64,000 nucleotides of DNA from Actinomycetes bacterium (GCA_021803025.1 JAJZQV010000003.1:20634-84633), one strand, 5' to 3'. Positions 12,647-31,713 are shown, counted from the first letter of the stretch. Numbers and translations: made by a program. Notes: generated from the letters alone by a model not told the origin.

Positions 12647-12647
12647 G

Positions 12648-13040: not shown

Positions 13041-13954
13041 GGGGCCACCTCGATGTTGTCGATGAGTCGTGTCGACCCCACCCGCGCGGCGAGGGCGATG
13101 AGCGTCGGGCGGTCGAGCGTCTCCACAGGCAGGAACGAATCGGGGTCCACCACGGCCACGTACTCGGCCTCGATGCCGGCGTCGGCCAGCACGTCCGCGA
13201 CGGCCCGTGCGAGGAGGCCCGGGTCACGTTCCCCAGCCGCGACCGCCGACTGCGCCGCGACGAGTCCCCGGTGCAGCGCCGTGGCTCGCCGCCGCTCGTG
13301 CGGGTCGAGCCGCACGTTGCGGCTGCTCATGGCCAGGCCGTCCTCCTCCCGCACGATGGGGAGGACCTCGATCCGGGTCGGGATGTCCAGGTCGGCCACC
13401 AGCCGCCGGACGACGGCGACCTGCTGGGCGTCCTTGGCTCCGAAGAAGGCGATGTCCGGCCGGACCATGTTGAGCATCTTCGCCACGACGGTCGCGACAC
13501 CGGCGAAGTGGCCCGGCCGCAGGGCGCCCTCGAGTACGTCCGCCACGCCCGACACCGTCACCGTCGTCGCGAAGCCCGGTGGGTACACGGCCTCCACCGC
13601 GGGCGCGAAGAGGATGTCCGCCCCGCACGCCTCGGCCAGCCTCGCGTCCCGGTCCTCGTCCCGAGGGTAGGCGACGAGGTCGGCCGCCTCGTTGAACTGG
13701 GTGGGGTTCACGAACAGCCACACGACCACCAGGTCACAGGAGGCACGTGCTGCCCGGATCAGCGAGAGGTGGCCCTCGTGGAAGGCGCCCATCGTCGGTA
13801 CCAGCCCGACGCGGCCGCTGGAGGCCACAGCGGCACGTACGGCCGCCACGTCACGAACGATCCTCACCGCCGGGTCTCTCCCGCCTCGAGCTGTACCACT
13901 GGAGCAGGTCACGCCGCGATGGCGCCAGACGAGCCTACGCGAGTGCGCGCGCAC
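13037..13954 (-). CDS. panC: Pantoate--beta-alanine ligase
   Basis: [18 protein letters not shown] (HxGH motif) and FGAKDAQQ. The true start is probably an internal GTG near 13870; the N-terminal ~28 aa of the ORF look non-native. Confidence 0.85.
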
Positions 13955-14012: not shown

Positions 14013-14097
14013 TGGTACCGGAGAAGGGACTCGAACCCTCACGCCTTGCGGCACAGGAACCTAAATCCTGCGTGTCTGCCAGTTCCACCACTCCGGC
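14013..14097 (-). tRNA. tRNA-Leu (anticodon TAG), type II with long variable arm, CCA encoded
   Basis: Reverse complement GCCGGAGTGGTGGAACTGGCAGACACGCAGGATTTAGGTTCCTGTGCCGCAAGGCGTGAGGGTTCGAGTCCCTTCTCCGGTACCA. Anticodon stem CAGGA/TCCTG, loop TTTAGGT, T arm GAGGG-TTCGAGT-CCCTT. Confidence 0.9.
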
Positions 14098-14169
14098 TGG
14101 CGTCTCGAGTGTACGAGAGCGAGCGGCCCCCGACGTGTCCACGAGAGGTCTCATCGGAGCGGTTGAGCT

Positions 14170-15159
14170 CTACTCCCGGGGCCACCTCTCGGGAGTCGCG
14201 ACCCGGAGACGGTTGAACATCCTGAGCGCCTCGGCCCGGTCCTCCACTCCACCCCCCTCGTGACCGTTGTATGGCCAGACCGTGATCGACTTCGGCCCCC
14301 CGTAGTTGTGAAAAGCTCCGAAGACGGTCGAGGGCGGACACGTGGCATCCATGAGTGCCGCCGAGAACAGGGCGTGAGCCTGTGCGCGCCGAGCCAGGTT
14401 GACGCCGTCGAAGTACGAGAGGGTGTGGAAGACCCGATCAGCATCCGTCCTGTGCACGGCGAGGTAGCGACCCAGCTCCTGGTAAGGCGGGTTGTCTGTC
14501 AGGACGGATGCGCGACGAAGATCGCAGAGAAAGGGCACGTGTGCGGCGATCGCGGTCAGGTCGCGGCGGAGCGCAGCCACCGCGATCGCGATTCCCCCAC
14601 CCTGGCTTCCCCCCGTGGCGAACAGCTGCGACGAGTCGACCCGCGGATGGGCCCGAAGTACATCAACAGCGCGGACCGCATCGACGTAGACCCGGCGATA
14701 GTAGTAGTTGTCCGGGTGGTCGATTCCCCTGGTCAGGTGACCGGGGAACGACGGGCCGCTTCCGACGGGGTCCGGCGTCACCCCGGCGCTGTGCCCCGAG
14801 CCCTGACCGCGCGTGTCCATGACGAGGGTCGCGTAGCCGGCAGTTGGCCAGAGCAGATGATCGAGGGGATTTCCGCGCCCGCCGCCGTACCCGAGGTACT
14901 GCACGACAGCGGGCAACCGTTCCTCGTTGTTCGTCGGCAAGAGGAGCCAGGCCGCGATCACGTGGCCGCCAAAGCCGGCGAATGTGACATCCCACACGTC
15001 GACCGACTCCAGGCCAGCGTCAACGGGTGAGAGCGTCACGTCGAGCGGGTACTCGCCGGACTCTGACAGGGTGCGCAGCCAGAAGGCGTCGAGGTCGTCC
15101 GGCTCCTGGGCCGCGCTGCGGTACTGCCACAGCGCTGCCTCATCAAGGTCCGTGAACAT
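14170..15159 (-). CDS. Carbohydrate esterase family 7 (acetylxylan esterase / cephalosporin-C deacetylase type)
   Basis: 329-aa ORF with an N-terminus typical of the AXE1 family (LWQYRS..PDDLDAFW) and nucleophile elbow GGSQGGG. Last gene of the LacI-ABC operon. Confidence 0.8.
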   Translation of the reverse strand: MFTDLDEAALWQYRSAAQEPDDLDAFWLRTLSESGEYPLDVTLSPVDAGLESVDVWDVTFAGFGGHVIAAWLLLPTNNEERLPAVVQYLGYGGGRGNPLDHLLWPTAGYATLVMDTRGQGSGHSAGVTPDPVGSGPSFPGHLTRGIDHPDNYYYRRVYVDAVRAVDVLRAHPRVDSSQLFATGGSQGGGIAIAVAALRRDLTAIAAHVPFLCDLRRASVLTDNPPYQELGRYLAVHRTDADRVFHTLSYFDGVNLARRAQAHALFSAALMDATCPPSTVFGAFHNYGGPKSITVWPYNGHEGGGVEDRAEALRMFNRLRVATPERWPRE

Positions 15160-15180
15160 CTGCGTGGAGTCTCCTGCCTG

Positions 15181-16818
15181 CTACCGAGCGACGCGAATGC
15201 TGGCGAGATGTCTGTCGCTGGTGCGTATCTCGTCCGGCCAGGCCAGCATGATCCCCAGACGGCCGTTGAGGAGGGCCTGGAAATCTCGAAGCACGCCTTC
15301 CGTGCGGTACACCTGTTCCGGCGAGACGCGTTCTTCAGCGCAGAAGGCCGCGAGCGCGCCCACGGCCTCGCCGATAGACCATTCGACTGGGTGCAATCGG
15401 TAGGCGCCATTGGTGATGTGCGTCGTGCCGATGTTCTTGTTCGCCGCGAGCAGGTTGTCCACGCCCTGCGGCAGCAGCGCACCCAGTGGGATCTGGAACG
15501 GATGACAGTCGATGTCGATGTAGGTTCGGCCCGACGTGCTCGGATGCAGGTCGATTCGGTAGTACCCGACGCCCACGGAATCCGAGAACTGCGCGGCACT
15601 CCGATCGTCCTCGCGCATGTGCCGGCCGATGTGGCCTTCGGTGATCGTGAACAGCGCGCGGATCCGTCGTGACTCGCGTACGTAGACCTCCTTGGCCAGC
15701 CCGTCCCCGGTGCCGGTGACGTCTCCACGGAGGAGCAGCTCCGGATACCCGGTGCCTCCATCGGAGCGTGGAGCCTCCGTCTGCATCCAGTGAATGAACG
15801 AGAGGGTCAGCTCGCGGGCACCGTCCAGGGCTGACTGGCGGGCGGCGTCGCCGACCCCAAGCAGTGGCTTCTCCCAGTAGTCCGCCTGAGGCCAGTTCAT
15901 GAGGGTTACGTCGCCGCTCGGCCACGATGGCCGCATGGTCGCACGCGCAAGAATCCGGCGATAGTGCCACAGGTCGTGGTCGCGGCTCGTCTCGGCATCA
16001 TGCGGACCGCCGGCAAAGATCGGCCGGGTGCGTCGACCCAGAGTGATCGGCTCGACGTCGTCCCACGACAGCTGCGGCCCGGGCCAGAATGGTGCGACCG
16101 ACGTCTTCCAGTGGTCGTACCCGGCAGGACGATCGATCGTATGGTCCTCACCCGCGCGGTACTCCAGCGCGGCGCACCACGTCACCGCCTGCTGGTCGAG
16201 CGGGTCTGCGACCGCGGGGGCGTGCCGCTCCCCCGTCTCGTCCGCTGACTCGGCGCCCATGACGAACGGGACGTCCGCGAGAGGCAGCAGGTCGCCCAGC
16301 TCCGTGGCATCGGCCACGAAGCGGCCCTCCAGCCGAGTCTCGCGACCATCGCGTGAGTCGCGCACCAGCACGGCCACAAGCCGCGATCCCTCACGCTCGA
16401 CCGCCAGCGGCTCCACATGGGTGAGGACTTTGAGCAGTCCGGAGGCAATCAGCGGGGAGACCATCTCCAGTATCGCGAGCGCGCCGACCCTCGGCTCGTG
16501 ACAGAGGCCGGAGACGAATCCCTCACCGGGGTTGAGGTTGATGGTGTTCTTCGCGGCGTCGGTCAATGGATAGTTACGGCGGTAGTGGTCGCGAATACGA
16601 TTCCGCAGTTCCGAGTAGCTCGGCGAGATCTGGTGCGTCTCGATCCACTTGTGCTCGTCCGGTGGGACCGCTTGGGTCGTGAGCTGCCCGCCGAGCCAGT
16701 CACCGCGCTCAGCGAGGACCACCGTGCTGCCGAGCCGAGCGGCAGTCAACGCCGCAGCGACCCCGCCGAGTCCTCCGCCGATCACCACGAGATTGGCGGC
16801 GTAATGCCTTTCGGGCAT
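15181..16818 (-). CDS. FAD-dependent oxidoreductase (FAD_oxidored/PF12831-like), function unknown
   Basis: Start MPERHYAANLVVIGGGLGGVAAALTAARLG gives a Rossmann GxGxxG motif. 545 aa. The ORF-track start 17145 overlaps the upstream permease and was rejected. Confidence 0.8.
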   Translation of the reverse strand: MPERHYAANLVVIGGGLGGVAAALTAARLGSTVVLAERGDWLGGQLTTQAVPPDEHKWIETHQISPSYSELRNRIRDHYRRNYPLTDAAKNTINLNPGEGFVSGLCHEPRVGALAILEMVSPLIASGLLKVLTHVEPLAVEREGSRLVAVLVRDSRDGRETRLEGRFVADATELGDLLPLADVPFVMGAESADETGERHAPAVADPLDQQAVTWCAALEYRAGEDHTIDRPAGYDHWKTSVAPFWPGPQLSWDDVEPITLGRRTRPIFAGGPHDAETSRDHDLWHYRRILARATMRPSWPSGDVTLMNWPQADYWEKPLLGVGDAARQSALDGARELTLSFIHWMQTEAPRSDGGTGYPELLLRGDVTGTGDGLAKEVYVRESRRIRALFTITEGHIGRHMREDDRSAAQFSDSVGVGYYRIDLHPSTSGRTYIDIDCHPFQIPLGALLPQGVDNLLAANKNIGTTHITNGAYRLHPVEWSIGEAVGALAAFCAEERVSPEQVYRTEGVLRDFQALLNGRLGIMLAWPDEIRTSDRHLASIRVAR

Positions 16819-16850
16819 GGTTTGAATACCTTTCTTCGTCCACGTGGGCA

Positions 16851-17765
16851 TCAGCCCTTGAGGCTGCCTTCTGACAGTCCAGAAATGAAACTGCGTTGAT
16901 TGAACAGGAAAATGACAAGAACAGGCAAGGTGACCAACACCGCACCTGCCATCAGCGGCCCGTATTGAACGTTCCCCGCCGACAGGAAACGGGCAAGCGC
17001 CAGCTGAACCGTCTGCATCCGAGCCGACGAGGTGACGACTAATGGCCACAGGAAGTCGGACCACACCGCCGTGAACGAGAAGATCGCAACTACCGCGACC
17101 AGGGGCCTGGCCAGTGGAAGGTAGATTCGCGAGAAGATGCGCCACTCCCCAGCCCCATCGATCCTTGCGGCTTCGGAGAGCTCGATGGGGGCAGTGCTGA
17201 AGAACTGTCTGGCCAGAAAGATGTTCATGGGCATCACCAGATACGGCAGAACGACACCCGCTAGCGTGTCCAACAATCCACTCCCCCCCTGGCCGACAAT
17301 GTCGTTGCCACCGACGAGAGGGATACCCCTGGCAATCAGGAAGAGCGGGATCAAGGTGACCGAACCGGGGATGGCAGTTGTCGAGACCAGAAGGTAGAAA
17401 AGGGGGGTTCTACCCGGGAACGGGAGCATCACAAACGCATAACCGGCCATCACGGCGATGAGACAGTTGGCTGAAACTGCTACGACTGCGACAATTGCCG
17501 AATTCAGCAGCGCGCGAATGAGGTTGGCATTGACCAGGGCGGTTGTGAAGTTTCCTAGCGTCGGATGCGACGGGATGAGACTGATCGACCCGAATGCCTC
17601 CTTCTCGGGAGTGAAGGCGATGCTGATCATCCAAAGGAAGGGAACCAGGACGATCACCGTGGTCAGCCCCAGAATGAGGCCTGCACCCCAGCGGTTTCGC
17701 CTCATCTCCTTATGGCTCACGCTGCGCACGCTGCTGGTTCGGCGAGTCGCCCTTGAAGCTCTCAT
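16851..17765 (-). CDS. Carbohydrate ABC transporter permease
   Basis: Start ATG 17765 overlaps the stop of the upstream permease (ATGA). EAA loop LSEAARIDGAGEWRIFSRIYLPLARP. Confidence 0.88.
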   Translation of the reverse strand: MRASRATRRTSSVRSVSHKEMRRNRWGAGLILGLTTVIVLVPFLWMISIAFTPEKEAFGSISLIPSHPTLGNFTTALVNANLIRALLNSAIVAVVAVSANCLIAVMAGYAFVMLPFPGRTPLFYLLVSTTAIPGSVTLIPLFLIARGIPLVGGNDIVGQGGSGLLDTLAGVVLPYLVMPMNIFLARQFFSTAPIELSEAARIDGAGEWRIFSRIYLPLARPLVAVVAIFSFTAVWSDFLWPLVVTSSARMQTVQLALARFLSAGNVQYGPLMAGAVLVTLPVLVIFLFNQRSFISGLSEGSLKG

Positions 17766-18742
17766 TTTTGTCTCCCCATCAGTCCGCGAATCGATAGCAA
17801 GGAGAAACCAGCAATGAAGGCGAAGAGCACGAAGGCCATGGCCGATGCGTATCCGAGCTGGTTGTACTGAAATGCCTGAGTATAGATGAGGTAGTTGACC
17901 GTGGTCGTGCTGCCAAGTGGCCCTCCCTGGGTCAGCACATAGATCTCGGCAAAGCCTTGAGCGAGGAAGATGATGTCCATGGCAACCACATAGACAAGCA
18001 TCGGGCGAAGGCCGGGCAGCGTCACATAGCGGAACAGTCCCCACGCGCCTGCGCCATCGACTCGGCCCGCCTCGTACAGCTCCTTTGGAATGGACTGGAG
18101 GCCGGCCAGCAGCAGCACCATGTTGCTGCCGAGGGCCATCCATATGCGCATCACGGATGCCGCGTTCAGCGCGGTGTCCTGATCGAGCAGCCATGACTGA
18201 CGGGGCAGGCCGAGAATCCCGAGGATCTCGTTGATCAGGCCGTTCTGCGAATAGATCCACAGCCAGACCATGCTCACGGCGGTGAGTGAGACAATGTGTG
18301 GGACGTAGAGGGCCGAGCGAAAGAACCCCACACCGCGAAATGGCCGGTTGACCAGCAGCGCCAAGCCAAGTGCTGCAGCGACAGTGATCGGCAGGACCTG
18401 CGCCACGTACCGTCCCGTGACCAGAAGCGAGTTTCCGAAGTCGGCGTCCGTCAGGAGCCTGGCATAGTTCTCAACGCCAATAGGCGTGGGGCCCGACCGA
18501 CTGAGCGGGCTGTACTTTGTGAAACTGAGGATCAGGCCGTACAGCACCGGGGCGAGTTGGAAGACCAGCACGTAGAGCGCCGCAGGCAGCACGAAGAGAA
18601 GCCCGGACCGGCTCGCGTTCGTCCAGCGACGTCTTGGGTTCGATATCCGCCTTGGGGGCGCCCCCCCGACGGACGCAGGTCCCCGAGCGCCCTTCGGAGA
18701 GGGCCGCACCACTACGCTCATGTGATTCTCCAACTCGCCCAC
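17762..18742 (-). CDS. Carbohydrate ABC transporter permease
   Basis: 326-aa polytopic ORF with LYEAGRVDGAGAWGLFRYVTLPGLRP. Start may be the internal ATG at 18721. Confidence 0.88.
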   Translation of the reverse strand: MGELENHMSVVVRPSPKGARGPASVGGAPPRRISNPRRRWTNASRSGLLFVLPAALYVLVFQLAPVLYGLILSFTKYSPLSRSGPTPIGVENYARLLTDADFGNSLLVTGRYVAQVLPITVAAALGLALLVNRPFRGVGFFRSALYVPHIVSLTAVSMVWLWIYSQNGLINEILGILGLPRQSWLLDQDTALNAASVMRIWMALGSNMVLLLAGLQSIPKELYEAGRVDGAGAWGLFRYVTLPGLRPMLVYVVAMDIIFLAQGFAEIYVLTQGGPLGSTTTVNYLIYTQAFQYNQLGYASAMAFVLFAFIAGFSLLSIRGLMGRQK

Positions 18743-18749
18743 GCGCCAA

Positions 18750-20093
18750 CTAGCCGTTCGCCTTCAGGATCTTGTCCACCGCCGCGGCTGCCTGGGTCAA
18801 CGCATCCTTCGATGACATCTTCTTGTTCAGCGCCTGCTCCAGAAACTTGTCCATGGTGTCGCGGATCTGGACCCAGCCTGGGACATTCGGATTCGGCACG
18901 AACTGCGGGGCCGCCTTGACGAACGCCTTGAGAATGGGGCTGTTCTTGACGTAGGACGTCTCAGCGGCAGAGGAGCGCGGCGGGACTGCACCGATGCCCT
19001 GCGTGTACTCCACGCTGGTGTCGGGCGCAATCATGTACTGGATGAACTTCCAAGCCAGTGCCTTGTGCTTGCTGTCGGCGTTGATCATCAAGCCTGGGCC
19101 CGCTCCACCCATGGCATAACCCTTGTCAGCGCCTTCGAACTTAGGCGGCATCATGACACGCAAGTCCATTTTGGGGTTGGCTGCGACGATCTGCTGCATG
19201 CCGTTGGGGGTCTGGAATTCCATTGAGGCAGTGCCGAGCACGATCGGCTGCTGGGCGGTCGGCGTGTTGATGTAGTTGGCGCCAAGTCCCGCGGACACTG
19301 CGTCGGGGCCGTTGAAGAGGCTGGTGAAGTAGTCGAGGGCGGCCACACCCTGCTGCGAGTCGAAGGCCGCGGCTGTCTGCTCCTTGTTCAGCTGCGTCCC
19401 CCCGTTGGAGAGGAGGAGCGCCGCGAAGGTCTGCTGTCGACCGATGGGCTGGCTGGGCAACAACAGGCCGGAGCGGGTAATGGCGCCGGACGCATCTCGC
19501 TTTGTCAGCTGCTTGGCGGCAGCGCGCACGCCCTCCCACGTTGTCGGCGGCTTGTTGGGATCGAGTCCTGCCGCCGTGAAGTCGGCGGCGTTGTACATGA
19601 TCAAGCTGCCCTGCATCGACAGGGGAACCAGATACTGCACTCCGTTCACCTGGCCGCCCTGCAAGGCGGAGGACATGTCGCTTCGATCCTTCTCGCTGAG
19701 CTGTTGGATGTAGTTGGTCAGCGGCTCGACGCGCTTGTTGGTGACGAAGTCGGCGACCGCCGCGGGACCATGCCCGAAGACATCTGGGGCCGTCCCCGCC
19801 GCGAACGCAGCGTTCAGCTTGGTGGAGATATTGCTCCAGTCCACGTAGGTAACGCTGACCTGAGCGCCCGTCGCCTTCTCGAAGTTCGGGACAATCTTCT
19901 TCGTGACGAGGGCAATCTCGGTCGGGTCCGTGCCGGGAAACCAGACGCTGATCTTTCCGCCCTCCGTCGGCACTGCCCCTGGGCTGGTCCCGGACCCGGC
20001 TGTCGGCCCTGCGCAGCCAGCCAGGACAAAGGCACTGACTGCAGCGATGGTCACCGTCCCTGTGAACAATCGATGGCGTTTCATAGCCTGCAT
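18750..20093 (-). CDS. Sugar ABC transporter substrate-binding lipoprotein
   Basis: 447-aa ORF with signal plus lipobox (VSAFVLAGCAG) and family-1 SBP composition. Confidence 0.9.
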   Translation of the reverse strand: MQAMKRHRLFTGTVTIAAVSAFVLAGCAGPTAGSGTSPGAVPTEGGKISVWFPGTDPTEIALVTKKIVPNFEKATGAQVSVTYVDWSNISTKLNAAFAAGTAPDVFGHGPAAVADFVTNKRVEPLTNYIQQLSEKDRSDMSSALQGGQVNGVQYLVPLSMQGSLIMYNAADFTAAGLDPNKPPTTWEGVRAAAKQLTKRDASGAITRSGLLLPSQPIGRQQTFAALLLSNGGTQLNKEQTAAAFDSQQGVAALDYFTSLFNGPDAVSAGLGANYINTPTAQQPIVLGTASMEFQTPNGMQQIVAANPKMDLRVMMPPKFEGADKGYAMGGAGPGLMINADSKHKALAWKFIQYMIAPDTSVEYTQGIGAVPPRSSAAETSYVKNSPILKAFVKAAPQFVPNPNVPGWVQIRDTMDKFLEQALNKKMSSKDALTQAAAAVDKILKANG

Positions 20094-20166
20094 GACGACT
20101 CCTCATTCCTTTTCGTGTACGGCGGGGGACGATCCCCCTCCTGGTTCGTGAACGTGCTCAGGCTGC

Positions 20167-21246
20167 TCACGTGGCCCGGTCCGATGTCGAGCCCAGCTCA
20201 GACGTGCTGTGCAGCCGTGCGATCGTGGTCAGGAGCGGTGGCTCGCACGGCAACACCTCGAAATGGTCGGACCCGATGTGACCGTCAAGGAGTTCGATGA
20301 GCACAGCAACGGCTCTTCGGCCCAGTTCACGTCGCGGGACCGTGATGTGGCTCCAAGGGTTGACCGCGTCGGCACGTGGTGCATTGTCAAGAACGACGAC
20401 GGAGAGCTGGTCCGGTATACCAATGCCGATGGCCGCCGCGAGACCGCCGAGTGTCGTCGCCAGCTCGTGGTTCTCGATGACGATCGCAGTCGTGCCGGCG
20501 TCAAGCACACCCAGGAGCCAGGCCTGCGTCAACTGATTCGGTTCGCAGATGCGGCGTTGGGTCGCGTTCAAGGCGCGGAAGGCGATGGCCTCGTCGAAAC
20601 CCGCACGGCGCTCTTCCTGCGGGTTCTTCGTCAGCGAGGTGCCGAGGTAGGCGATAGAGCTATGCCCATGGTCGGCGAGGGTATTGACGACAGCGCCGAC
20701 CGCACCGAAGTACCCGGCGGTCACATATGGCACCCCAGGAACATCACGATGGCCGATGAAGACGAACGGAAACCCCTCGCCGGCAAGCCGTCGGAGCTCC
20801 TCGTCGTTCTGTTCGAGACCGAGAATCACAGCACCGTCAGCGAGTTTCAACCGATTCGAGCCCGACCCGTAGATAGTGCGGGTCCCGTCACTGCCCTGCG
20901 TCGAGGCGAAGAGCACGAGATCCTGCCCGAGTTCGACGGCCTGCTCCTCGATCCCGATGAGGATCTCGTTGAAGTAGTTGTCCGAATGTACGGGGAACAC
21001 GCGCTCGAACGTGTGCACGCCGATGAGTCCGTTACGTCCCCCTCGTAGAGACCTTGCGGCGACATTCGGCACATAGCCGAGCTGTCGTATTGCGGCGCGA
21101 ATGCGCTCCTGGGTCGTCTCCGGGATACCGTTCTCAGCCGCCCTGCCGTTGACCACCATAGAAACCACCGCTTGAGACACCTCAGCGATGCGAGCGATGT
21201 CGCGCTGCACGGGCTTGGTCTTCTTGACCACGTCACGTCTCCTCAC
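20167..21246 (-). CDS. LacI-family transcriptional regulator
   Basis: N-terminal HTH (QRDIARIAEVSQAVVSMVVNGR) plus a periplasmic-binding-fold sugar sensor domain. GTG start. Confidence 0.9.
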   Translation of the reverse strand: MRRRDVVKKTKPVQRDIARIAEVSQAVVSMVVNGRAAENGIPETTQERIRAAIRQLGYVPNVAARSLRGGRNGLIGVHTFERVFPVHSDNYFNEILIGIEEQAVELGQDLVLFASTQGSDGTRTIYGSGSNRLKLADGAVILGLEQNDEELRRLAGEGFPFVFIGHRDVPGVPYVTAGYFGAVGAVVNTLADHGHSSIAYLGTSLTKNPQEERRAGFDEAIAFRALNATQRRICEPNQLTQAWLLGVLDAGTTAIVIENHELATTLGGLAAAIGIGIPDQLSVVVLDNAPRADAVNPWSHITVPRRELGRRAVAVLIELLDGHIGSDHFEVLPCEPPLLTTIARLHSTSELGSTSDRAT

Positions 21247-21269
21247 TGAGGACGCTGGGCTAATCTCTA

Positions 21270-21285
21270 GGTTATACGTATAACC
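21270..21285. promoter_or_regulatory. Perfect 16-bp palindrome, candidate LacI-family operator
   Basis: GGTTATACGTATAACC with the central CG typical of LacI-type operators. It lies 24 nt upstream of the LacI start and downstream of the candidate -10. Confidence 0.55.
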
Positions 21286-21299
21286 CGATGGTGTTTTTC

Positions 21300-21329
21300 A
21301 TGTTATGGCGACAGGCACAGAGTTGTCAA
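21300..21329 (-). promoter_or_regulatory. Candidate promoter of the LacI-ABC-oxidoreductase-esterase operon
   Basis: Minus strand reads TTGACA-N18-TAACAT: consensus -35 and a TAnnnT -10. Confidence 0.4.
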
Positions 21330-21634
21330 GCGCCCACTGTTGACCCATGGACGGAGGATCCACGTGGAGGAGGGGTGATGATGAGGCCGATCCCCGCGTA
21401 CGCGCAGGTCGACGAAGCAAAGTGTCACGGCTCTCGTGACCTGAGGGAGTCCGGGTGGACGTGTTGGTGCGGGTGGCAGAGGTCGAGCCCTCGAGAGTCG
21501 GGGTTACCGGCGGGGGGACTCGCCCACCCCACCTCGGACAGGGTCCCTGAAGAAGATCATCCGCGGACAACGCCCTAGAAACCCCTTGGCGTCTGGGGAC
21601 TCTCCTTCCTTTTCCGAGGAAACTCTGGCCGCGC

Positions 21635-22462
21635 CTATCCTTTGAGGCCGCTGGCGAATCCTTTGATGACATACTTCTGCAGAAGGAAGAACACGAGGAT
21701 GATCGGCAGGATCGCTATGAGGATTCCTGCAAAGACCACCCCCCATTCGGTCGCGTACTCGCCCCTGAATGAGAAGATCGCGACCGTAAGCGTACGAGCC
21801 TCGCTGCCGCCCAGGTAGAGCAACGGCGTCAGGAAGTCGTTCCACACGTGGATGGAGGTCACGATAACGACTGTTCCGGTGACCGGCCGTAAGAGGGGAA
21901 AGACGACGCGCGAGAAGCTCTGGAAAGCATTCGCTCCGTCGACCTGTGCGGCCTCCTCGTACTCGCTGGGCTGGGTGGCCAGGAAGCCGCTGTACAGGAA
22001 CACGGTCAGCGGAAGGTAGGCGCCGACGCTGTAGATGATCACCGACCAGGGCGTCTGCAGCAGCCCCAGGTCGCGCATGAGCTGGTACAGGGGAACCATG
22101 CCGAGCTGGATGGGGATCGAGATTCCCAGGGTCACGAGAATGAGGAGAACCCGGTTGACCCGGCCGGCGCCTCGAACGAGCCCGTACGCCGCCGCTGACC
22201 CGAAGCAGATCAGCACGACGACACTGATCGCGGTGATGAGAATCGTCTGCACGAACGCGCGGGCAAGATCCGCCTGTCCCCACGCGATCATGAAGTTGTC
22301 GAGGTAGAGCCGGGTGGGAGGGGTATAGGCGGACTTCGCGACCTCCGTGGGCGACTTGAACGCGACCACGACGAGAATGTAGATCGGGAACAGCGCGATC
22401 ACCCCGAAGACGGCGAAGAGCAGTTCCAGTGCCAAGCTCTGCACACCGTAACGTCTTCTCAT
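21635..22462 (-). CDS. Carbohydrate ABC transporter permease
   Basis: Start MRRRYGVQSLALELLF at 22462 overlaps the upstream stop by 1 nt (TGATG). EAA loop YEEAAQVDGANAFQSFSRVVFPLLRP. Confidence 0.88.
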   Translation of the reverse strand: MRRRYGVQSLALELLFAVFGVIALFPIYILVVVAFKSPTEVAKSAYTPPTRLYLDNFMIAWGQADLARAFVQTILITAISVVVLICFGSAAAYGLVRGAGRVNRVLLILVTLGISIPIQLGMVPLYQLMRDLGLLQTPWSVIIYSVGAYLPLTVFLYSGFLATQPSEYEEAAQVDGANAFQSFSRVVFPLLRPVTGTVVIVTSIHVWNDFLTPLLYLGGSEARTLTVAIFSFRGEYATEWGVVFAGILIAILPIILVFFLLQKYVIKGFASGLKG

Positions 22463-23382
22463 CAGGTTGCCCCCGTCCGTCGGCGCGCCCACGTCTGGAT
22501 GAACGCAGCGGCCGCAATGATCATGGTGAGCACCAAGGCGATCGCAGACCCGTACCCGTAGTTGCCCAGCACGAATGACTGTTGGTACGTGACGAGCGAC
22601 AGAACCTGGGTGGCAACGCCCGGGCCGCCGTTCGTCATGACGAAGATCTGGTCGAAGATCTTCAGCGCCCCGACCATTGTGAGCGTGATGTTGATGGTCG
22701 TGGCAGGACCGAGCATCGGTCGGGTGATGTGCCAGAAGTTCTGTCGCCCGTTGGCACCGTCGATCGCGCTTGCCTCGTACAACTCAGCGGGTACCTCCTC
22801 GAGAGCGGCGAGGTAGACGACGATCGAGAAGCCGGTGTTCTGCCAGATCAGGGCGACGATGACCGACCAGATCGCCACAGAGGTGCTGCCGAGCCAAAGC
22901 TGGATCAGCGAACCCAGGCCGAGCCCGGAGAGCACGCTGTCGATAGGCCCGCCAGGGTTGTACAGGAACTGCCACAGCACCCCCACGATGAGCGACGGCA
23001 GGATGAACGGCAAGAAGAAGATGGTCCGCAAGGCCCCGCGCAGCTTCAGCCTCTGGTGAAGACCGATCGCCAGCATCAGCGCGAGGGCGGTCTGACCGAT
23101 CACCAGAGAGACGGTGACCAGGATCGTGTTCCCGACCGAGCGGATCGCGTCCTGGTCTGCAAGGAGCGTCCGGAAGTTGGTCAAGCCGACGAAGTCAGCC
23201 CGTCTCCCCCCCTTGGAGTTCGTGAAGGCGAGAGCGGCACCCGCGAAGGTCGGGTAGATCAGCACCGTTCCGTAAAGAACGAGTGCGGGCAGTGCGAACC
23301 AGAGCAAGCTGCGTCTGTTGGGATGCCTGCCCTTCTTGAGGTTCTTGCCCGTACTGATCGCGGGTGCCACAGTCGTCGTCAT
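22462..23382 (-). CDS. Carbohydrate ABC transporter permease
   Basis: 306-aa polytopic ORF with LYEASAIDGANGRQNFWHITRPMLGP. Confidence 0.88.
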   Translation of the reverse strand: MTTTVAPAISTGKNLKKGRHPNRRSLLWFALPALVLYGTVLIYPTFAGAALAFTNSKGGRRADFVGLTNFRTLLADQDAIRSVGNTILVTVSLVIGQTALALMLAIGLHQRLKLRGALRTIFFLPFILPSLIVGVLWQFLYNPGGPIDSVLSGLGLGSLIQLWLGSTSVAIWSVIVALIWQNTGFSIVVYLAALEEVPAELYEASAIDGANGRQNFWHITRPMLGPATTINITLTMVGALKIFDQIFVMTNGGPGVATQVLSLVTYQQSFVLGNYGYGSAIALVLTMIIAAAAFIQTWARRRTGAT

Positions 23383-23397
23383 ATCGTCGTTACCTCA

Positions 23398-24666
23398 TCA
23401 GCCCTTCGCGTAGGCCGCATCGAGTGCAGCGAGTACCTTCGGGATGGTGATCTCGCCCGACGCCAGCAGCGGTGCAGTCTTGAAGAAGGCCTGCTGAGTG
23501 TCGCCGTTGACCCACCGGTGGTTGGGGAACGGGGTGAAGTGCTGGTTGGCGATGTACGGCTTCAGGACGGTGCCCAGCTCTGTCGAGACGGCCGTCGAAC
23601 CGGTAAGGATCGGGATGCTCGAGGTCGCCTTGGCGTAGTCGGCCGCGCGGGTGGGGTCGGACAGGTACTGGAACCAAGCCTTGGCGCCGTCGGGGTTCTT
23701 CGCCTTCGCGTTGAGGGCCAGCAGCTCAGGTGAGATCGGTACGTAGGTCTCGTCCGGGTTGTCCGTCGCGGGCAAGGCGAACACGCCGACATCGTCCGCC
23801 TTGTTCGGGAAGGACGCGAACAGCGCCGGAGAGTTCGTCGAGACGAGCGGAATCATGGCCGCAGCCCCGGAAGCAGTCTGCTTCATGGCTCCGTCGAGCG
23901 TCACCCCCAGCGCGTTCGGAGTGATGTAGCCCTTGTCCATGAGCGTCTTGTACTTGGCGAAGACCTCGTTCCATCCCGGGTCCTTGACGAAGCTCGTCGT
24001 GCCGGCCTTCATCTGTGCATCGATGTCCGGTTCACGCGCGCTCACCAGCGAAGCTGCGAGCATGTACGGAATGAACTGCGCCATCGACGGCGTCCCCAGG
24101 CCCTGAGCGACAGGAATCTTGTCGGCGTCCTTCAAGGTCTGACAGACGGTGAGGAACTCGCTCCATGTCGTCGGAGCCTTGACTCCGACCTGGGTGAACA
24201 CTGCCTTGTTGTAGAACATGAGGATTGCCTGACCGGAGGTCGGGTACGCCCAGATCCTGCCATCCCACTCGAGGAGCGCGCGATACGACGCCGGGATGTT
24301 CTTCGCCCAGGGCTGGTCGGTCAGGTCGGCCAGCGATCCTTCCTTGGCCAGCGGGAGTACGCCAGCCGTCAGGCTGCCGAGCGCGGCTCGGACCACATCG
24401 GGCGCCGTCCCAGAGTTGATCTGGATGCGAAGCTGCTCGACAAGGGCGTTCACCTCAGAGGTCGTCGGCTTGAACTCGTAGCCTGTCGACTGCGTGAAAC
24501 CGTCGTAGAACGGCTTGAAGCCGGCTCCTTGCTCGTGCGTGATGAGCGCAGTGACCTGCTTCGTGCCGCCTCCGGAGCTGGCTGACGTGCACCCTCCGAC
24601 AGCGAAGGCTGTCGCTAACACCCCGACAGCAGTGGCGCCAAATTGGCGCCGGGTAAGAGATTGCAT
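23398..24666 (-). CDS. Sugar ABC transporter substrate-binding lipoprotein
   Basis: 422-aa ORF with a Tat/Sec-like leader and lipobox (ATAFAVGGCTSASSGG). Confidence 0.88.
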   Translation of the reverse strand: MQSLTRRQFGATAVGVLATAFAVGGCTSASSGGGTKQVTALITHEQGAGFKPFYDGFTQSTGYEFKPTTSEVNALVEQLRIQINSGTAPDVVRAALGSLTAGVLPLAKEGSLADLTDQPWAKNIPASYRALLEWDGRIWAYPTSGQAILMFYNKAVFTQVGVKAPTTWSEFLTVCQTLKDADKIPVAQGLGTPSMAQFIPYMLAASLVSAREPDIDAQMKAGTTSFVKDPGWNEVFAKYKTLMDKGYITPNALGVTLDGAMKQTASGAAAMIPLVSTNSPALFASFPNKADDVGVFALPATDNPDETYVPISPELLALNAKAKNPDGAKAWFQYLSDPTRAADYAKATSSIPILTGSTAVSTELGTVLKPYIANQHFTPFPNHRWVNGDTQQAFFKTAPLLASGEITIPKVLAALDAAYAKG

Positions 24667-24681
24667 AGTTGCGTTTTCTCC

Positions 24682-26169
24682 TTACTGATGTTTGACGGTA
24701 TTTGTGGTTTTCTGTTCGTCCGGGGCGACTATCACGGCTTCGATGTTCAGCACAGTGGCGATCTTCTGGATGGTCGCGGCGTGGTGACCGATGCCGAGCG
24801 CATAGTGATGCGTCGGGGCCTCGGCGACCCATCTCTTCAGGAATGTGCGCACATCGGGCTGGAATCGGCCGAGTGTGTTGGTGTTTCCCGTGGGCGGAAC
24901 TGGGAGGTGGAGGGACTGTCCTTCGGCAATCACGAACTTGAACTTCCCGTTCGCCGTGATGGTGTTTCCCAACATGGTGATGGGGCCCTCTTTGATATTG
25001 AACTCCACGCTCGCACCAGCGCCAGGCTTGCCGTGGTACTTGCGAAGACTCCGGATCGCGGGCCGACCTTCGGCGATATTGATGTGGTGCGGGCCGTCGT
25101 GTCCGACAAGTACCGCATCCCGCTCATAGTCGATGGGATGGAACTCGGCGAAGCTTCCGCCGATCTCAAGGCGATCCATCACCATCATGGCGACACAGGT
25201 CTTGATATCGAACTCCCCGCACATGGGGAACCCCGCCGCCTGCAGCAGCGAGTTGCCCACGATCAGATTCGTCATCAGGGTTCGCGTCTCGGATCCCGGC
25301 AGTCCCTCGTAGTAGTACGCCAACCCGTCGAGGTTCTTCTCCGCGACGAATTGGTCAAGGGCCACGGCCGCACGCGCGGCCGTCGTCAGATCGTCCTGGG
25401 TGAGGCGCAGGGTGAGTGGGTCTGAGACCGGGTCCGGGGTGTCGAAGAACGCGAGAATCTCCCTTTGCTTGGCGTCCACCATCCTCGGATCCTGGTCGAC
25501 GTAGTGGCGAAGGATGTCCTCAGGCTCACAGAGCACCACGTGGCTGCCGAACGTGGCGGTGAGCGCCGTCGGGTCGGTGTGCATGTCGAGCATCGACTCC
25601 AAGACGTGCCCCATCAGACCGATCCGTGCGTTCCGCAGACTGTGGTAGACCTTCGCGATCTGGCACCACTCAGCCAGCTCAGCGTCGGCGATCGGGTCGT
25701 CGTGCAACTTGCCCAGGATCACCTCGGGGGGCCGCTTACCCATGCGTACGGCCGTGGCCGCGAACTCAGGAACGGCACAGAAGTCGTCGTTGACCAGCTG
25801 CATGTATGTGGTCGCGTGCGCATAGTCCATCGCGGCCAGTGGCTGCAGCGCAACCAAAACCACAGGTATGTCGAGAGCACGAATCAGCACGCCGAAGGTC
25901 GAGGACGTGGCATACGTGACCATGTCGACGAACAACAGGTCGAGGTCAGCGGCCCGGATCTTTGGCAGCGCCGCATAGGCGGTTTGCGCATCGTCGACCA
26001 TTCCGAAATTGATGGCCTCTACCCCGTTGGCGACAACCTTTGCCTCGAGGGTCCGCGCTTTCCCTTCCATGTCTTCGAGGAGTCCGGCGAACTGCCCCCA
26101 GTAGACGTTGTGTCCCACTGAGAGAATTCCCACTCTGGCTTCCAGTGGCCTACGGCGTTCAATCGCCAT
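24682..26169 (-). CDS. L-fucose/L-arabinose isomerase family protein
   Basis: Start MAIERRRPLEARVGILSVGH at 26169 with GGAGCAAGAGG upstream. About 495 aa. N-terminal layout (VGILSVGH..YW, LLFVDMVTYATSS) and C-terminal FKFVIAEG..HHYALGIGHH resemble the FucI/AraA-like isomerase family. Family call is from memory. Confidence 0.7.
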   Translation of the reverse strand: MAIERRRPLEARVGILSVGHNVYWGQFAGLLEDMEGKARTLEAKVVANGVEAINFGMVDDAQTAYAALPKIRAADLDLLFVDMVTYATSSTFGVLIRALDIPVVLVALQPLAAMDYAHATTYMQLVNDDFCAVPEFAATAVRMGKRPPEVILGKLHDDPIADAELAEWCQIAKVYHSLRNARIGLMGHVLESMLDMHTDPTALTATFGSHVVLCEPEDILRHYVDQDPRMVDAKQREILAFFDTPDPVSDPLTLRLTQDDLTTAARAAVALDQFVAEKNLDGLAYYYEGLPGSETRTLMTNLIVGNSLLQAAGFPMCGEFDIKTCVAMMVMDRLEIGGSFAEFHPIDYERDAVLVGHDGPHHINIAEGRPAIRSLRKYHGKPGAGASVEFNIKEGPITMLGNTITANGKFKFVIAEGQSLHLPVPPTGNTNTLGRFQPDVRTFLKRWVAEAPTHHYALGIGHHAATIQKIATVLNIEAVIVAPDEQKTTNTVKHQ

Positions 26170-26238
26170 GCCTCTTGCTCCAATTCTTATCGTAGTTCCT
26201 TGGTGCCGATATCTGTCGGCGCGCTCACAGCGCATCCA

Positions 26239-26716
26239 CTACTCGAGGCAGAAGACTTCCTGCATGAACCTGCTCGTGGCATGCTCTTCGTCCGGCTCCA
26301 TCATGAGCGGAGCCATGCCGGCCTGCCATTCGAGCCACGTGTCGTCCTGCCCCATCCGAGCTCGATGGTGGTGCCTGGTGCATGGTGGCCGGTGTCGAGG
26401 CAGATCATTGTCTTCTCCCCGAGCACGGGGACCTGGGGATGGCTGGTATCCCAGTCGCACACGTCCGTGTGGTATAGCGCCGGCGCGTGGAACCTGTACT
26501 CCAGCACCAGACGCTGCTCAGGTCCGAGCCGGTCATAGATCTTCGCAAGGGAGCTGGCGAGCCCGATCTCCTGATGGCCACGGATGTCGACCTGGCCGGG
26601 GTGATCGGAGCCGTCAGCCAGCAGCTGCCGAACGCCCACGAGGGCAACTTGGTGGCCCGTGTAGCCAGCTCATCACTGATCGGTTCAAAGGTGGTCATCA
26701 TCGACCCTCTGCTCAT
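26239..26716 (-). pseudogene. Decayed RhaI-type (xylose-isomerase-fold) sugar isomerase
   Basis: Three overlapping ORFs in three frames. Frame 1 gives TTFEPISDELATRATKLPSWAFG (N-terminus). Frame 2 gives LADGSDHPGQ..LAKIYDRLGPEQRLVLEYRFHAPALYHTDVCDWDT..LGEKTMICLDTGHHAPGTTIE (core metal site). Frame 3 gives a short tail. About 480 nt remain, versus about 1.3 kb expected for this family. Confidence 0.6.
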
Positions 26717-26734
26717 GTTCGGTCCGGATTCAAA

Positions 26735-26746
26735 TGAACCGTTTCA
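26735..26746. promoter_or_regulatory. Candidate LacI-family operator
   Basis: TGAACCGTTTCA is an imperfect palindrome with a central CG. It begins 3 nt downstream of the candidate -10 and is divergent from the LacI gene at 26997. Confidence 0.45.
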
Positions 26747-26749
26747 GTC

Positions 26750-26778
26750 AAACTATCCTGCCGTCCGCAGCCTGTCAA
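26750..26778 (-). promoter_or_regulatory. Candidate promoter of the isomerase-ABC operon
   Basis: Minus strand reads TTGACA-N17-TAGTTT. Confidence 0.45.
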
Positions 26779-26996
26779 TAGGCTTTGACTAGGTTCTATG
26801 CATCAACGAGGCAGGAAGATCCGGCCTTATGATGGGCCATGATCTGAAGCGCTTCATATACCGAGAGCTCAGTTCTGCTGCGATGGCACAGGGTTCGCTT
26901 CGGATCAGTGCGCCGAGCGCGCAGGGAAGAACCGAGCTGTTGGTGGGCTATACGCTCGAGACAGGCCGCGAGAAGCCGTGGTGGAGGAGGGTGACC

Positions 26997-28046
26997 GTGC
27001 GGAACGGCGACAAGGTCCGCCTGAGCGACGTGGCGCGGGCCGCCGGGGTCTCCCTCGGTACCGTCTCCAACACGCTCAACCGCCCCCATACGGTGTCGGA
27101 GCAGACACGCAAGAAGGTCCTCGCCGCAATCAAGAAACTTGACTTCGTACCAAACGAAGGCGCGGCGTCCCTACGCAGTGGTACAAGCAGGATGCTTGGC
27201 TTGGTGATCCCGGACGTCACCAACCCGATCTATGCCGAGATCACGAAGGGCGTTGCAGTTGCCGCTGAGGCAGCAGGCTATGCAGTCATGTTGTTCAACA
27301 CCGATGACCAGCCCGACCGCGAGCTCAGACAACTCGAGATGCTCGCGAGACACAGGTCGGCCGGCGCCCTGATTGTCCCTCGAAAGGCCGACGACCATCG
27401 CCTTGAACGACTTCGAAACCTCGGACTGCACCTGGTTCTCATTGACCGTGCCGCATCCGAGCATGACGGTTGCTCAGTTTCGATCGACGACGTCCGCGGC
27501 GGCCTCCTAGCCACGAGCCATCTTCTGGCCTCAGGTCGGAGGAAGATCGCGTTCGTCAGCGGACCGGTTCTGGTCCCGCAGGCGGCAGGGCGGCTTGAGG
27601 GTCTCCGCAGAGCCCTTGTTCAGGCGAAGCTCGATCCCGGCAGCTGCATTGAGATCGACATGGAGGACACGTCCTACGCCGACGGTGAACTCGCGGCGAG
27701 CCGGATCGCGGAGATGTCCGACCCGCCGGACGGCGTCTTCTGCATCAACGACCAGCTGGCTATCGGGGTCTTGCGGGGACTCATACGCGCCGGCATCAGT
27801 GTTCCCGCCGAGATTTCCGTGGTGGGATACGGCGACTCCGCCATTGCCGAGAGCGCACCCGTGCCACTCACCACTGTTCGGCAACCCATGTTCGACCTCG
27901 GGCGCGCAGCAGTAGGTCAACTGCTCAGCGAAGTGGACGAATCCCGTGAGGAGCACCACCACTCCTCGACTGTCTTCGTTCCCTGTCTCGTGATCAGGTC
28001 CTCAGCTCCTCAGATCGAGCGAAGCAGGACTCCTAGCGACGAGTAG
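26997..28046 (+). CDS. LacI-family transcriptional regulator
   Basis: HTH VRLSDVARAAGVSLGTVSNTLNRP plus a sugar-binding domain. GGAGGAGG lies 6 nt before GTG 26997. The ORF-track start 26829 is likely too far upstream. Confidence 0.88.
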   Translation: MRNGDKVRLSDVARAAGVSLGTVSNTLNRPHTVSEQTRKKVLAAIKKLDFVPNEGAASLRSGTSRMLGLVIPDVTNPIYAEITKGVAVAAEAAGYAVMLFNTDDQPDRELRQLEMLARHRSAGALIVPRKADDHRLERLRNLGLHLVLIDRAASEHDGCSVSIDDVRGGLLATSHLLASGRRKIAFVSGPVLVPQAAGRLEGLRRALVQAKLDPGSCIEIDMEDTSYADGELAASRIAEMSDPPDGVFCINDQLAIGVLRGLIRAGISVPAEISVVGYGDSAIAESAPVPLTTVRQPMFDLGRAAVGQLLSEVDESREEHHHSSTVFVPCLVIRSSAPQIERSRTPSDE

Positions 28047-28060
28047 TCGTTCCGTCAGAG

Positions 28061-28288
28061 TTGGACGAATTCATGGCTCTTCACAATCGACAGAGCAGCT
28101 GGGGCCTGAAGCCGCCGGTCTCGAGTTGGGTCGCCAGGGCCGGCGTCGAACCACCGCAGGGCGTGACCTGGTCGGACGCCATCGCGAATCGGAACTGGCT
28201 GATCCACCAGTACGACACGGTCTCTCAACTGCCGACCCGGAGAGCGAGTAGGCCCAATTGGTCGGTATCGGAAGGGCCCGATAAGTAA
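28061..28288 (+). pseudogene. Relic of a HEPN/DUF86 (HepT-like) toxin gene
   Basis: The 75-aa ORF contains TWSDAIANRNWLIHQYDTV, an exact Rx4HxY HEPN motif (nt 28190-28213) in the usual W..I...RN.L.H.Y context. The N-terminal half of a normal ~130-aa HepT is missing and there is no cognate nucleotidyltransferase gene. Confidence 0.35.
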
Positions 28289-28356
28289 AAGGCCCGATCC
28301 GAGTCGTTCACGCCTCGAAGGACGCATCGCGCCTTGTCAGATGGCATTTCGAATCG

Positions 28357-28437
28357 TACCGGAGAACGGACTTGAACCCTCACGCCCTTCGGCACGGGAA
28401 CCTAATCCTGCGTGTCTGCCAGTTCCACCACTCCGGC
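28357..28437 (-). pseudogene. Degenerate copy of tRNA-Leu(TAG)
   Basis: Reverse complement GCCGGAGTGGTGGAACTGGCAGACACGCAGGATTAGGTTCCCGTGCCGAAGGGCGTGAGGGTTCAAGTCCGTTCTCCGGTA. The first 33 nt are identical to the gene at 14013..14097. The anticodon loop is 1 nt short (TTAGGT), the anticodon stem has an A-C mismatch, the T stem has a G-G mismatch, and the 3' end is CGA instead of CCA. Confidence 0.6.
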
Positions 28438-28534
28438 CGGCGTCTCGAGTGTACGAGAGGGGGCGCTCCGACTTGTCCACAGCCCAGGCGGCGTTGCCTT
28501 GCGCGGCCGGCGCTGGGGGCCTGACGCTCGGCGG

Positions 28535-29488: not shown

Positions 29489-29490
29489 GT

Positions 29491-29690: not shown

Positions 29691-29709
29691 TCCGAACGTA
29701 GCCGGCGGT

Positions 29710-31059: not shown

Positions 31060-31163
31060 GAGCGGGTCCCGGACATCGCCGACAGCCTACGAGGGCGGGA
31101 GGGACCATGAGAGGACATGAAGTAGCGTGCGTCACACCGTCGGCGTACACGTGAGGAGGTCCG

Positions 31164-31703: not shown

Positions 31704-31713
31704 TCCGAACTAT

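Follow-up and report, generated by a model that had tools for sequence, protein, structure and literature searches.

Analysis of a 64,000-nucleotide stretch of DNA from an Actinomycetes bacterium (GCA_021803025.1, JAJZQV010000003.1:20634-84633), hereafter the window, with all positions counted from its first letter, revealed a compositionally foreign block of some 14 kb that lies between two direct copies of a tRNA-Leu gene and carries two LacI-regulated sugar-uptake loci. Copy A (14013-14097) is an intact tRNA-Leu(UAG) gene, and copy B (28356-28437) is, by its sequence, a pseudogene. The reading that we prefer, tentatively and with a little less than even confidence, is that the block is an acquired islet and that copies A and B belong to two versions of one tRNA locus, which would have been stacked by integrase-independent recombination. 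That stacking took place, with what enzymology and in what order, is our inference; the composition of the block and the flanks of the two copies are observed directly.

The repeated tRNA-Leu module

Both tRNA copies lie on the minus strand, so that the block is upstream of copy A and downstream of copy B. ARAGORN reports copy A as tRNA-Leu(tag), with CCA encoded, and copy B as 'tRNA-??? (ag)'. A repeat finder and pairwise alignment define a repeat unit of about 128 nt with approximately 90% identity (14015-14142 versus 28356-28480), in which the 1-nt offset between the copies is a deletion. The unit consists of the entire tRNA and about 46 nt of 5′ flank, positions −46 to +74, and the homology ends sharply on both sides. 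Within it, nucleotides 1-33 of the tRNA are identical, as is the 21-mer GGCGTCTCGAGTGTACGAGAG, and the resemblance reaches as far as GTCCAC (GTGGAC on the tRNA strand). Six differences separate the copies across the 76-nt body, in addition to CCA versus CGA at the 3′ end. An earlier, sequence-only reading of the window had described two tRNA-Leu-like copies in the same orientation, with these identical segments, about seven differences and looser similarity extending to a total of some 130 bp, and the alignment bears this description out. The flanks included in the repeat, 14098-14142 for copy A and 28438-28480 for copy B (both on the minus strand), were delimited from the same alignments and contain a TACACT box at 14108-14113 and 28448-28453, respectively, together with GTGGACACGT in the case of copy A. 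A 23-nt probe from the tRNA 3′ end finds two sites only, copies A and B, with none expected by chance, and no third tRNA-derived repeat was found at the nrtR/Redoxin end of the neighbouring cofactor genes.

Scored with the Rfam tRNA model RF00005, for which the gathering score is 29, copy A reaches 49.9 bits, has a 7-nt anticodon loop and belongs to the family, whereas copy B, at 26.4 bits, falls outside it. A 1-nt deletion has reduced the anticodon loop of copy B to 6 nt, the anticodon stem contains an A:C mismatch, and the T stem a G:G mismatch; with a private base change in the variable loop, the copy has four private lesions altogether. The disabling changes are absent from copy A and from nine functional copies from relatives, and copy B is, to judge from these lesions, a non-functional pseudogene. 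Copy A differs from the single copy of the relatives at one base of the variable loop and nowhere else. No CCA is encoded in copy B; because most relatives read GGTACGA after the discriminator, we take its CCA-less 3′ end to be the ancestral state.

Upstream of the tRNA, CTCGTACACT is kept 10-11 nt from the 5′ end in 10 of 10 related loci. As a strict sigma-70 promoter scan gave no match at copy A or copy B, the promoter in the repeated flank is a putative one, its sole basis being the conserved TACACT box. The leader CGAGACGCC is common to copies A and B and occurs in no relative; the contigs L111, from a sister species, and L115, from a further relative, both have CGTCACGCC. A and B are moreover each other's closest relatives in the leader and the −35-like region. 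The leader that they alone share suggests that both copies came from very closely related genomes, or else that gene conversion has partially homogenised them. A metagenome scan with this leader gave no match, and a broader metagenome scan gave six loci, all of them single-copy.

The closeness of the two copies could also reflect duplication of the 128-nt module in place, for instance through template switching in repair, with subsequent independent illegitimate insertions of the block and of the adjoining pan/nad genes, and the locus is clearly prone to repeated rearrangement (see below). We think this improbable: several independent events would be needed at one spot, no relative has a tandem or nearby cargo-free duplicate, and the match of the flanks of each copy to a different relative would be left unexplained.

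Composition and assembly of the block

In 1-kb intervals, the GC content is 0.58-0.68 within 14-28 kb and 0.70-0.74 just outside, in agreement with the drop between the copies claimed from the sequence alone. Sugar-transport loci elsewhere in the window, at 2.5-6.5 kb and 36-40.5 kb, also fall to about 0.64, and the GC content at third codon positions (GC3) is more informative than total GC for this block. The 11 block genes have GC3 values of 0.72-0.85 with a mean of 0.793 (0.72-0.83 in module 1 and 0.74-0.85 in module 2, defined below), compared with 0.84-0.97 and a mean of 0.912 for 26 backbone genes (Mann-Whitney p = 2.6e-6). The seven nrtR, nad and pan genes have values of 0.88-0.94 (mean 0.910), and the mean over the 33 non-block genes of the window is 0.91. 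Codon log-likelihood is lower in all 11 of the block genes. Among genes of ATP-binding cassette (ABC) systems, the six outside the block have GC3 of 0.90-0.97 and the six inside 0.72-0.85 (p = 0.002). The outside ABC loci thus combine low total GC with native GC3, which places the step at synonymous sites. The computed profile steps at copy A, from panC (0.903) to the first block gene, AXE1 (0.815), and again at the right end, where the last block gene, LacI2 (0.736), meets a toxin gene relic, hepT, followed by the DUF559-like gene and dinB (0.84 and 0.92). The block is, we conclude, foreign in composition.

For panC and dinB, the nearest named relatives are metagenome-assembled genomes (MAGs) of Propionibacteriaceae and Propionicimonas. 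Identity to the window reaches 99.8-100% in 14 contigs from other samples and in two NCBI MAGs. The arrangement panC-copy A-AXE1 is spanned by four independent assemblies, and contig L092 (sample ERZ27237442) spans the end of LacI2, the hepT relic, copy B, DUF559 and dinB, with only the last 15 nt of LacI2 kept. The sequence of copy B recurs unchanged in independent same-species assemblies. The junctions at both copies, crossed by independent contigs, are therefore real, and the block appears to be fixed in the sampled population. Short-read contigs often end inside the repeat, at 14064-14068 and 28404-28408, and positions 25160-28031 are covered by no independent contig, the link between the block and LacI2 resting there on the window assembly. 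Together with the low total GC of the other sugar loci, these breaks are the points in favour of there being no island at all, the region being either native DNA of atypical composition or an assembly artefact at the repeat. That view is already largely refuted, and we give it scarcely any credence, in light of the native GC3 of the other sugar loci, the assemblies that cross the junctions, the absence of the block from this locus in every relative examined and the rarity of its genes in the clade.

Cargo of the block

Gene calls for module 1 were taken from same-species contigs, and the assignments in both modules come from Pfam and NCBIfam. Module 1 lies wholly on the minus strand and comprises an AXE1/CE7 acetyl esterase (14170-15159), an FAD oxidoreductase (PF12831; 15181-16818), two permeases (16851-17765 and 17762-18721), a substrate-binding protein (SBP; 18750-20093) and a LacI-type regulator (20167-21231). 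Module 2 comprises two permeases (21635-22462 and 22462-23382), an SBP (23398-24666) and an arabinose/fucose-isomerase-like protein (24682-26169), all on the minus strand, and a divergent LacI-type regulator, LacI2 (26829-28046), on the plus strand. There are thus two complete CUT1-type sets, each with an SBP_bac_1/8 protein, two BPD_transp_1 permeases and a LacI/PBP regulator, and the cargo is, as the sequence-only reading had it, two LacI-regulated ABC sugar loci. All of the major open reading frames (ORFs) of the block are concerned with sugar uptake, catabolism or LacI regulation. There is no ATPase gene among them; a shared MsiK-type ATPase is usual in actinobacteria. The ABC and LacI paralogues of the window are at most 34% identical to one another, so the cargo is not a recent segmental duplication, an origin that had been entertained and that we reject.

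The gap between the isomerase-like gene and LacI2 (26170-26828) is unusually long at about 660 nt, and longer still if LacI2 starts later. It gave no Pfam match in any frame, and a pseudogene there could not be verified. A match to Rfam sR5 at 26613-26704 is sub-threshold and probably due to chance.

Synteny of the dinB-Redoxin interval

Relatives have a single tRNA-Leu(tag) gene between dinB and a Redoxin/AhpC gene, and the content around it varies. The order is dinB-DUF559-ECF (extracytoplasmic function) sigma-LytR-sigma-ORF-tRNA-0.2 kb-Redoxin in L095/L096 (dinB 88% identical to that of the window), dinB-DUF559-sigma-LytR-tRNA-hepT-mnt-Redoxin in L099 (dinB 84%), dinB-DUF559-tRNA-1.7 kb-Redoxin in L105, DUF559-tRNA-other in L108, dinB-tRNA-unrelated genes in L102 (dinB 89%), and dinB-fragmented DUF559-tRNA-unknown 410-aa gene in L115 (dinB 92%). 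Two contigs come from a sister MAG, GCA_035702685.1: L101 (dinB 94%) reads dinB-LacI′-SBP′, with LacI′ 33% identical to LacI2, and L111 (panC 90%) reads GH43-like gene end-tRNA-Leu-panCDB-nadCBA-nrtR-GMC oxidoreductase. In L112 (panC 88%), pan-nad-nrtR has other surroundings and no tRNA beside it. The dinB-Redoxin interval, with seven or more configurations among some 10 relatives, is hypervariable and is built around the single tRNA-Leu(UAG) gene of the clade. The tRNA of the outgroups is 0.2-1.7 kb from Redoxin, with no pan genes there; measured against these arrangements, the extra DNA of the window is about 21 kb (7.3-28.1 kb), made up of nrtR-nadABC, panBDC, copy A and the sugar block.

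The copy B side is collinear with L115 from 28354 to 31826, from the tRNA through DUF559 and dinB to MarR, with 80.6% identity over 3.5 kb. The upstream motif GTGGACAAGT of copy B is common to L115, its DUF559-side flank to L115, L105 and L108, and its 3′ trailer TCTGACAAGG to L108 and L099. As judged by these matches, copy B is the copy at the syntenic site, with native flanks, where relatives keep their single tRNA-Leu gene. The copy A side, in turn, is 85% identical in nucleotide sequence to the sister tRNA-pan-nad-nrtR region from panB to tRNA position −20, and this match shows copy A in the same linkage to pan/nad that the sister species has. Each copy therefore carries flanks that match a different relative, B the outgroups and A the sister. 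A resemblance of the 27-nt spacer between AXE1 and copy A to the 3′ end of the sister GH43-like gene (CCGCTC...TGAGACCT) is not significant, as about 16% of shuffles reach its score.

The right boundary of the block

A toxin relic had been suspected in the block, and it is real. Nucleotide identity, tblastx and Pfam identify the segment 28128-28237 (plus strand) as what is left of a hepT toxin gene (HEPN/DUF86), namely its C-terminal part with the RNWLIH (Rx4H) motif. It shares 82% nucleotide identity (73/89, E 2e-22) with the tRNA-adjacent hepT of L099 and 67% identity over 39 aa by tblastx. The Pfam HepT-like profile gives the relic a score of 16.6 (E 0.007), below the cut-off of 23.5, and the L099 protein an E-value of 9.8e-6. 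About 35-40 C-terminal codons are left; the N-terminal half and the MNT partner are gone, so that the relic falls short of a full-length HEPN toxin with an adjacent MNT antitoxin. In L099, hepT is intact and stands beside a Polbeta-type MNT gene.

The hepT segment lies 140 nt 3′ of copy B, compared with 155 nt 3′ of the tRNA in L099. This collinearity, and the ancestral 3′ trailer that copy B keeps, put the right end of the block inside hepT and not at the tRNA; the boundary is placed, on the sequence, between the LacI2 stop codon (28046) and 28128, that is, at about 28047-28127. Copy B and the cargo are separated by 230 nt or more of native 3′ flank, hepT among it, and the A and B repeats are probably not both insertion junctions. 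The sequence-only reading had the two repeats bracket the island, of which the right end lies in hepT.

An ORF called at 28055-28327 on the minus strand has no family match, is antisense to the hepT relic and is spurious. Contig L092 departs from the window 15 nt before the LacI2 stop codon, being joined at window position 28032. Its positions 3030-5757 hold an IS21-family insertion sequence (IS) element (IstA/IstB), which has terminal multiple repeats, GTGGCCAAGTAGAAGTC, and lies within an IS3-like transposase fragment. The contig was considered as an island-free variant and rejected as such, since it carries a nested insertion of the IS21/IS3 type within the final 15 nt of LacI2; IS activity thus affects the LacI2-end junction in part of the population.

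Distribution of the block genes and the question of an integrase

Homologue clusters number more than 50 for dinB (82-94% identity) and more than 100 for panC (78-93%). AXE1 has four, at 75-87%, the next being at or below 66%, and its named matches are mostly from Microbacteriaceae, for example Frigoribacterium. L095, L099, L102, L105 and L115 lack the block at this locus, as do the visible parts of L101 and L111, so that the predicted patchiness of the block is confirmed. The five closest panC relatives from GTDB species genomes (L001-L005, 70-87% identity) share panBDC only, have no tRNA nearby and are too distant for a synteny test. In L103 (AXE1 76%), the order is permease-permease-FAD oxidoreductase-AXE1, followed by GH5 and GH2 genes. 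In L114 (AXE1 87%), the AXE1 stop codon is directly followed by a 5′-truncated tyrosine recombinase ORF at 1283-1594 (PF00589, E 3.7e-11, profile positions 101-169 of 172), which retains box II (HDLRHT) and the region of the catalytic Tyr. The block is therefore patchy and mobile on an evolutionary scale, with an integrase remnant alongside in at least one lineage.

This remnant occupies the place at which, in the window, the upstream region of copy A starts, and the sequences of the relatives diverge at, or no more than about 25-35 nt beyond, the 3′ end of the tRNA, as is expected of a tDNA integration hot spot. Both observations are in keeping with classical integrase-mediated insertion into tRNA-Leu through an unusually long att site spanning the gene, the integrase having later been deleted. 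We nevertheless doubt this strongly. The repeat takes in 46 nt upstream of the tRNA that an att site does not need and, as had been remarked from the sequence, fits duplication of a 3′-core att site poorly. Integration should regenerate the proximal copy, and it is the proximal copy that is decayed. The 230 nt or more of ancestral 3′ sequence kept at copy B, hepT included, mean that the block was not inserted at its 3′ end. Moreover, Pfam found no recombinase domain in the ORFs or gaps of the block, consistent with the earlier statement that it has no integrase or transposase, and no integrase, transposase, excisionase, replication or transfer/conjugation gene (FtsK/TraB, type IV secretion) was found in the window. 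Among viral contigs, the 5′ half of the tRNA gave no match, the 3′ half matched in phage tRNA arrays only, and no attP-like element was found.

Two of the viral contigs, L116 and L117 (IMG/VR), are very large and carry arrays of seven to eight tRNA genes. Their tRNA-Leu(tag) is identical to copy A over the 3′ 28 nt; these are phage-encoded tRNAs, not att sites. A conserved direct-repeat motif, GTGCAACAT(A/T)CGTGCAACA, lies 60-100 nt 3′ of tRNA-Leu in L095 (about 15960-15985), L107 and L110, the 3′ flanks of which otherwise differ around it. It may serve an integrative element, or a regulator, as a protein-binding site.

Origin of the two-copy arrangement

In the stacking model that we prefer, a 14-kb islet with two LacI-regulated CUT1-type ABC sugar-uptake modules would have been acquired horizontally, and A and B would be tRNA genes that come from two structurally different versions of this one locus. 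The older version would have read DUF559-tRNA-hepT-mnt-Redoxin, as in the outgroups, and the younger sugar genes-tRNA-panCDB-nadCBA-nrtR, as in the sister species. Integrase-independent recombination would have brought both into one chromosome, one end being anchored in conserved sequence flanking the locus at Redoxin (or at dinB/DUF559) and the other joined illegitimately, within hepT (about 28047-28127) or immediately upstream of copy A. Such a process would be a form of homology-facilitated illegitimate recombination. Once two tRNA-Leu(UAG) genes were present, the ancestral copy B would have been dispensable and free to decay, copy A supplying the function. At the boundary of the block, the window has a truncated hepT and no mnt, and conserved anchors are present on both the Redoxin and the dinB/DUF559 sides.

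The sequence-only reading had favoured a Campbell-type insertion or a segmental duplication, and the full-length direct duplication that the former predicts is indeed seen. A circular DNA carrying the tRNA module (−46 to +74), the hepT relic and the sugar block would have undergone a single RecA-dependent crossover with a chromosomal tRNA-Leu already followed by panCDB, giving two hybrid full-length copies. The direct repeats of about 128 nt, with their 5′ flank and sharp ends, are long enough for homologous recombination; no integrase is involved; and the final structure is exactly as predicted. The donor, by contrast, would need a prior insertion of the block into hepT and an illegitimate circle-closing join of the AXE1 end to position −46. 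Among about 12 related loci, a sample limited by short contigs, none had the recipient-type empty site DUF559-tRNA-panC, and in no relative is panC-tRNA directly followed by DUF559-dinB, the arrangement that had been expected of block-free genomes. A megablast of the whole block against plasmids returned one trivial 130-nt match, and neither a circular form nor a plasmid relative. We regard a Campbell crossover as unlikely. Both it and the combination of one-ended homologous recombination with an illegitimate join yield the same product in a similar number of events; the one-ended route is slightly favoured because it directly explains the truncation of hepT and the loss of mnt at the cargo boundary.

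Several points weigh against stacking by the one-ended route. No genome with either presumed parental version was recovered at more than 94% identity, and the two sister contigs, L101 and L111, are short and have no link to each other. The locus would have to stay structurally polymorphic, or its versions be exchanged, among close lineages. Neither illegitimate junction shows diagnosable microhomology, and the end product would be identical after a Campbell crossover within the 128-nt repeat. There is no established natural competence or other route of linear-DNA uptake for the organism. Finally, the T-loop reads TTCAAGT in copy B, L111 and L115 and TTCGAGT in copy A and the outgroups; this base and the leader shared by A and B do not fit a single simple tree, barring gene conversion or homoplasy.

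A more speculative proposal, which we consider improbable, is that tRNA-Leu and its putative promoter serve as a portable, integrase-free landing pad, at which circularised or conjugally transferred fragments bearing the module are captured by RecA-dependent single crossover. If this were so, the cassettes between copies, sugar loci here and a different LacI/SBP/GH43 set in the sister, could be swapped by homologous recombination, and Propionibacteriaceae would have a general means of exchanging cassettes with no need of mobile-element enzymes.

Flanking genes and other features of the window

The right anchors, supported by Pfam and by synteny with L095, L099, L105, L108 and L115, are the AbiEi/DUF559-like gene (28616-29488, plus strand) and dinB (29710-31059, minus strand). 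The left anchor is the Redoxin/AhpC-TSA gene (6806-7282, plus strand), placed by gene calls and synteny. Between it and copy A lie nrtR (7391-8290) and nadA/B/C (8390-11729) on the plus strand and panB/D/C (11759-13867) on the minus strand, all with Pfam support and native GC3. The presence of pan-nad-nrtR between the tRNA and Redoxin is peculiar to the window, the cluster being absent there in L095, L099 and L105; in the sister species it also lies directly 3′ of a tRNA-Leu gene, yet not beside Redoxin. The cluster is a conserved unit that has different neighbours in each genome examined: Redoxin and the tRNA/AXE1 side in the window, GMC oxidoreductase and GH43 in the sister, and TetR/ABC2 in L112, in which nadC is called only in shortened form and nadA and nadB are not called. 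Core cofactor operons are being shuffled along with accessory cassettes.

The DUF559-like gene is intact in the window (290 aa) and split in L115 (2280-3223) into fragments of 78 and 174 aa. The gap between the convergent DUF559 and dinB genes (29491-29677) contains a 51-nt tandem unit at 29576-29626 and 29627-29677, with 76% identity between its copies, and an inverted partial copy at 29491-29514 that is 92% complementary; the core of the unit, ATGAGCGCAACTCTGGCGGTCGGA, has no other occurrence in the window. Farther to the right, at 61000-62500, GC content rises to 0.767 and AT skew to +0.49 inside a 1053-codon ORF on the minus strand (60587-63745), which suggests that its product is of low complexity or repetitive.

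Comparison with known systems

Genomic islands associated with tRNA genes, and the tDNA hot spots that they occupy, are known for example from Burkholderia pseudomallei and Klebsiella (PMC2612704, PMC4891358). The block resembles them in having cargo of atypical composition and codon usage, sporadic presence among relatives, a position beside a tRNA gene in a locus of variable content and flanking repeats derived from that gene. It departs from the classical form in that no recombinase lies at either end and in that the repeat is a whole tRNA with 46 nt of 5′ flank instead of a short 3′ core next to an intact proximal tRNA; here the syntenic tRNA has decayed, and one end of the cargo lies in a toxin gene.

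The actinomycete integrative and conjugative elements (ICEs) of the pSAM2, SLP1 and pMEA types target tRNA genes, and their att identity segments can be relatively long. An actinobacterial host and the involvement of a tRNA are common to these elements and the block. Unlike ICEs and their actinomycete class, the block has no integrase, excisionase, Rep or FtsK/TraB-like genes, and its cargo is purely catabolic. Campbell integration through a cloned segment likewise leaves a full-length direct duplication flanking the insert; here, however, there is no known circular donor, only about 128 nt are duplicated, and one copy has native sequence on both sides. The hepT relic resembles HepT-MNT modules in keeping the Rx4H motif region and in matching the intact hepT of L099, and differs from them in lacking the MNT partner and the N-terminal half, so that the module is non-functional.

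Modules that arrive, displace and yet leave orphaned ancestral pieces behind, possibly through homology-facilitated illegitimate recombination, have been described (PMC5361080). In that article, which cites de Vries and Wackernagel 2002 and Prudhomme et al. 2002, the process is proposed for effector-immunity arrays of the type VI secretion system (T6SS) and for Rhs orphan arrays. Stacking at the tRNA-Leu locus would be similar in that a version is anchored in conserved flank, the other end is illegitimate and the ancestral orphan decays. It would differ in that the orphan is a tRNA gene with a toxin relic, not an immunity gene, and the case is drawn from one genome.

Overall, the block is an ordinary acquired islet at a tRNA hot spot, unusual only in the duplication of a whole tRNA gene with its upstream region. 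It adds a data point on the turnover of sugar-utilisation cassettes in uncultured Propionibacteriaceae, where operons of the essential pantothenate and NAD pathways have also moved into the hot spot, and it opens no new class of system. Three twists set it apart from the known islands, namely the duplication of gene and upstream region together, the pseudogenisation of the syntenic copy and the toxin relic as boundary of the cargo. Island-finding rules that look for an integrase, a repeated 3′ tRNA fragment and an intact proximal tRNA would miss or misread this islet, in which the functional tRNA is the distal duplicate and the dead one the syntenic copy. For annotation, copy B is to be labelled a pseudogene, and the repeats that bracket an island need not be its recombination sites.

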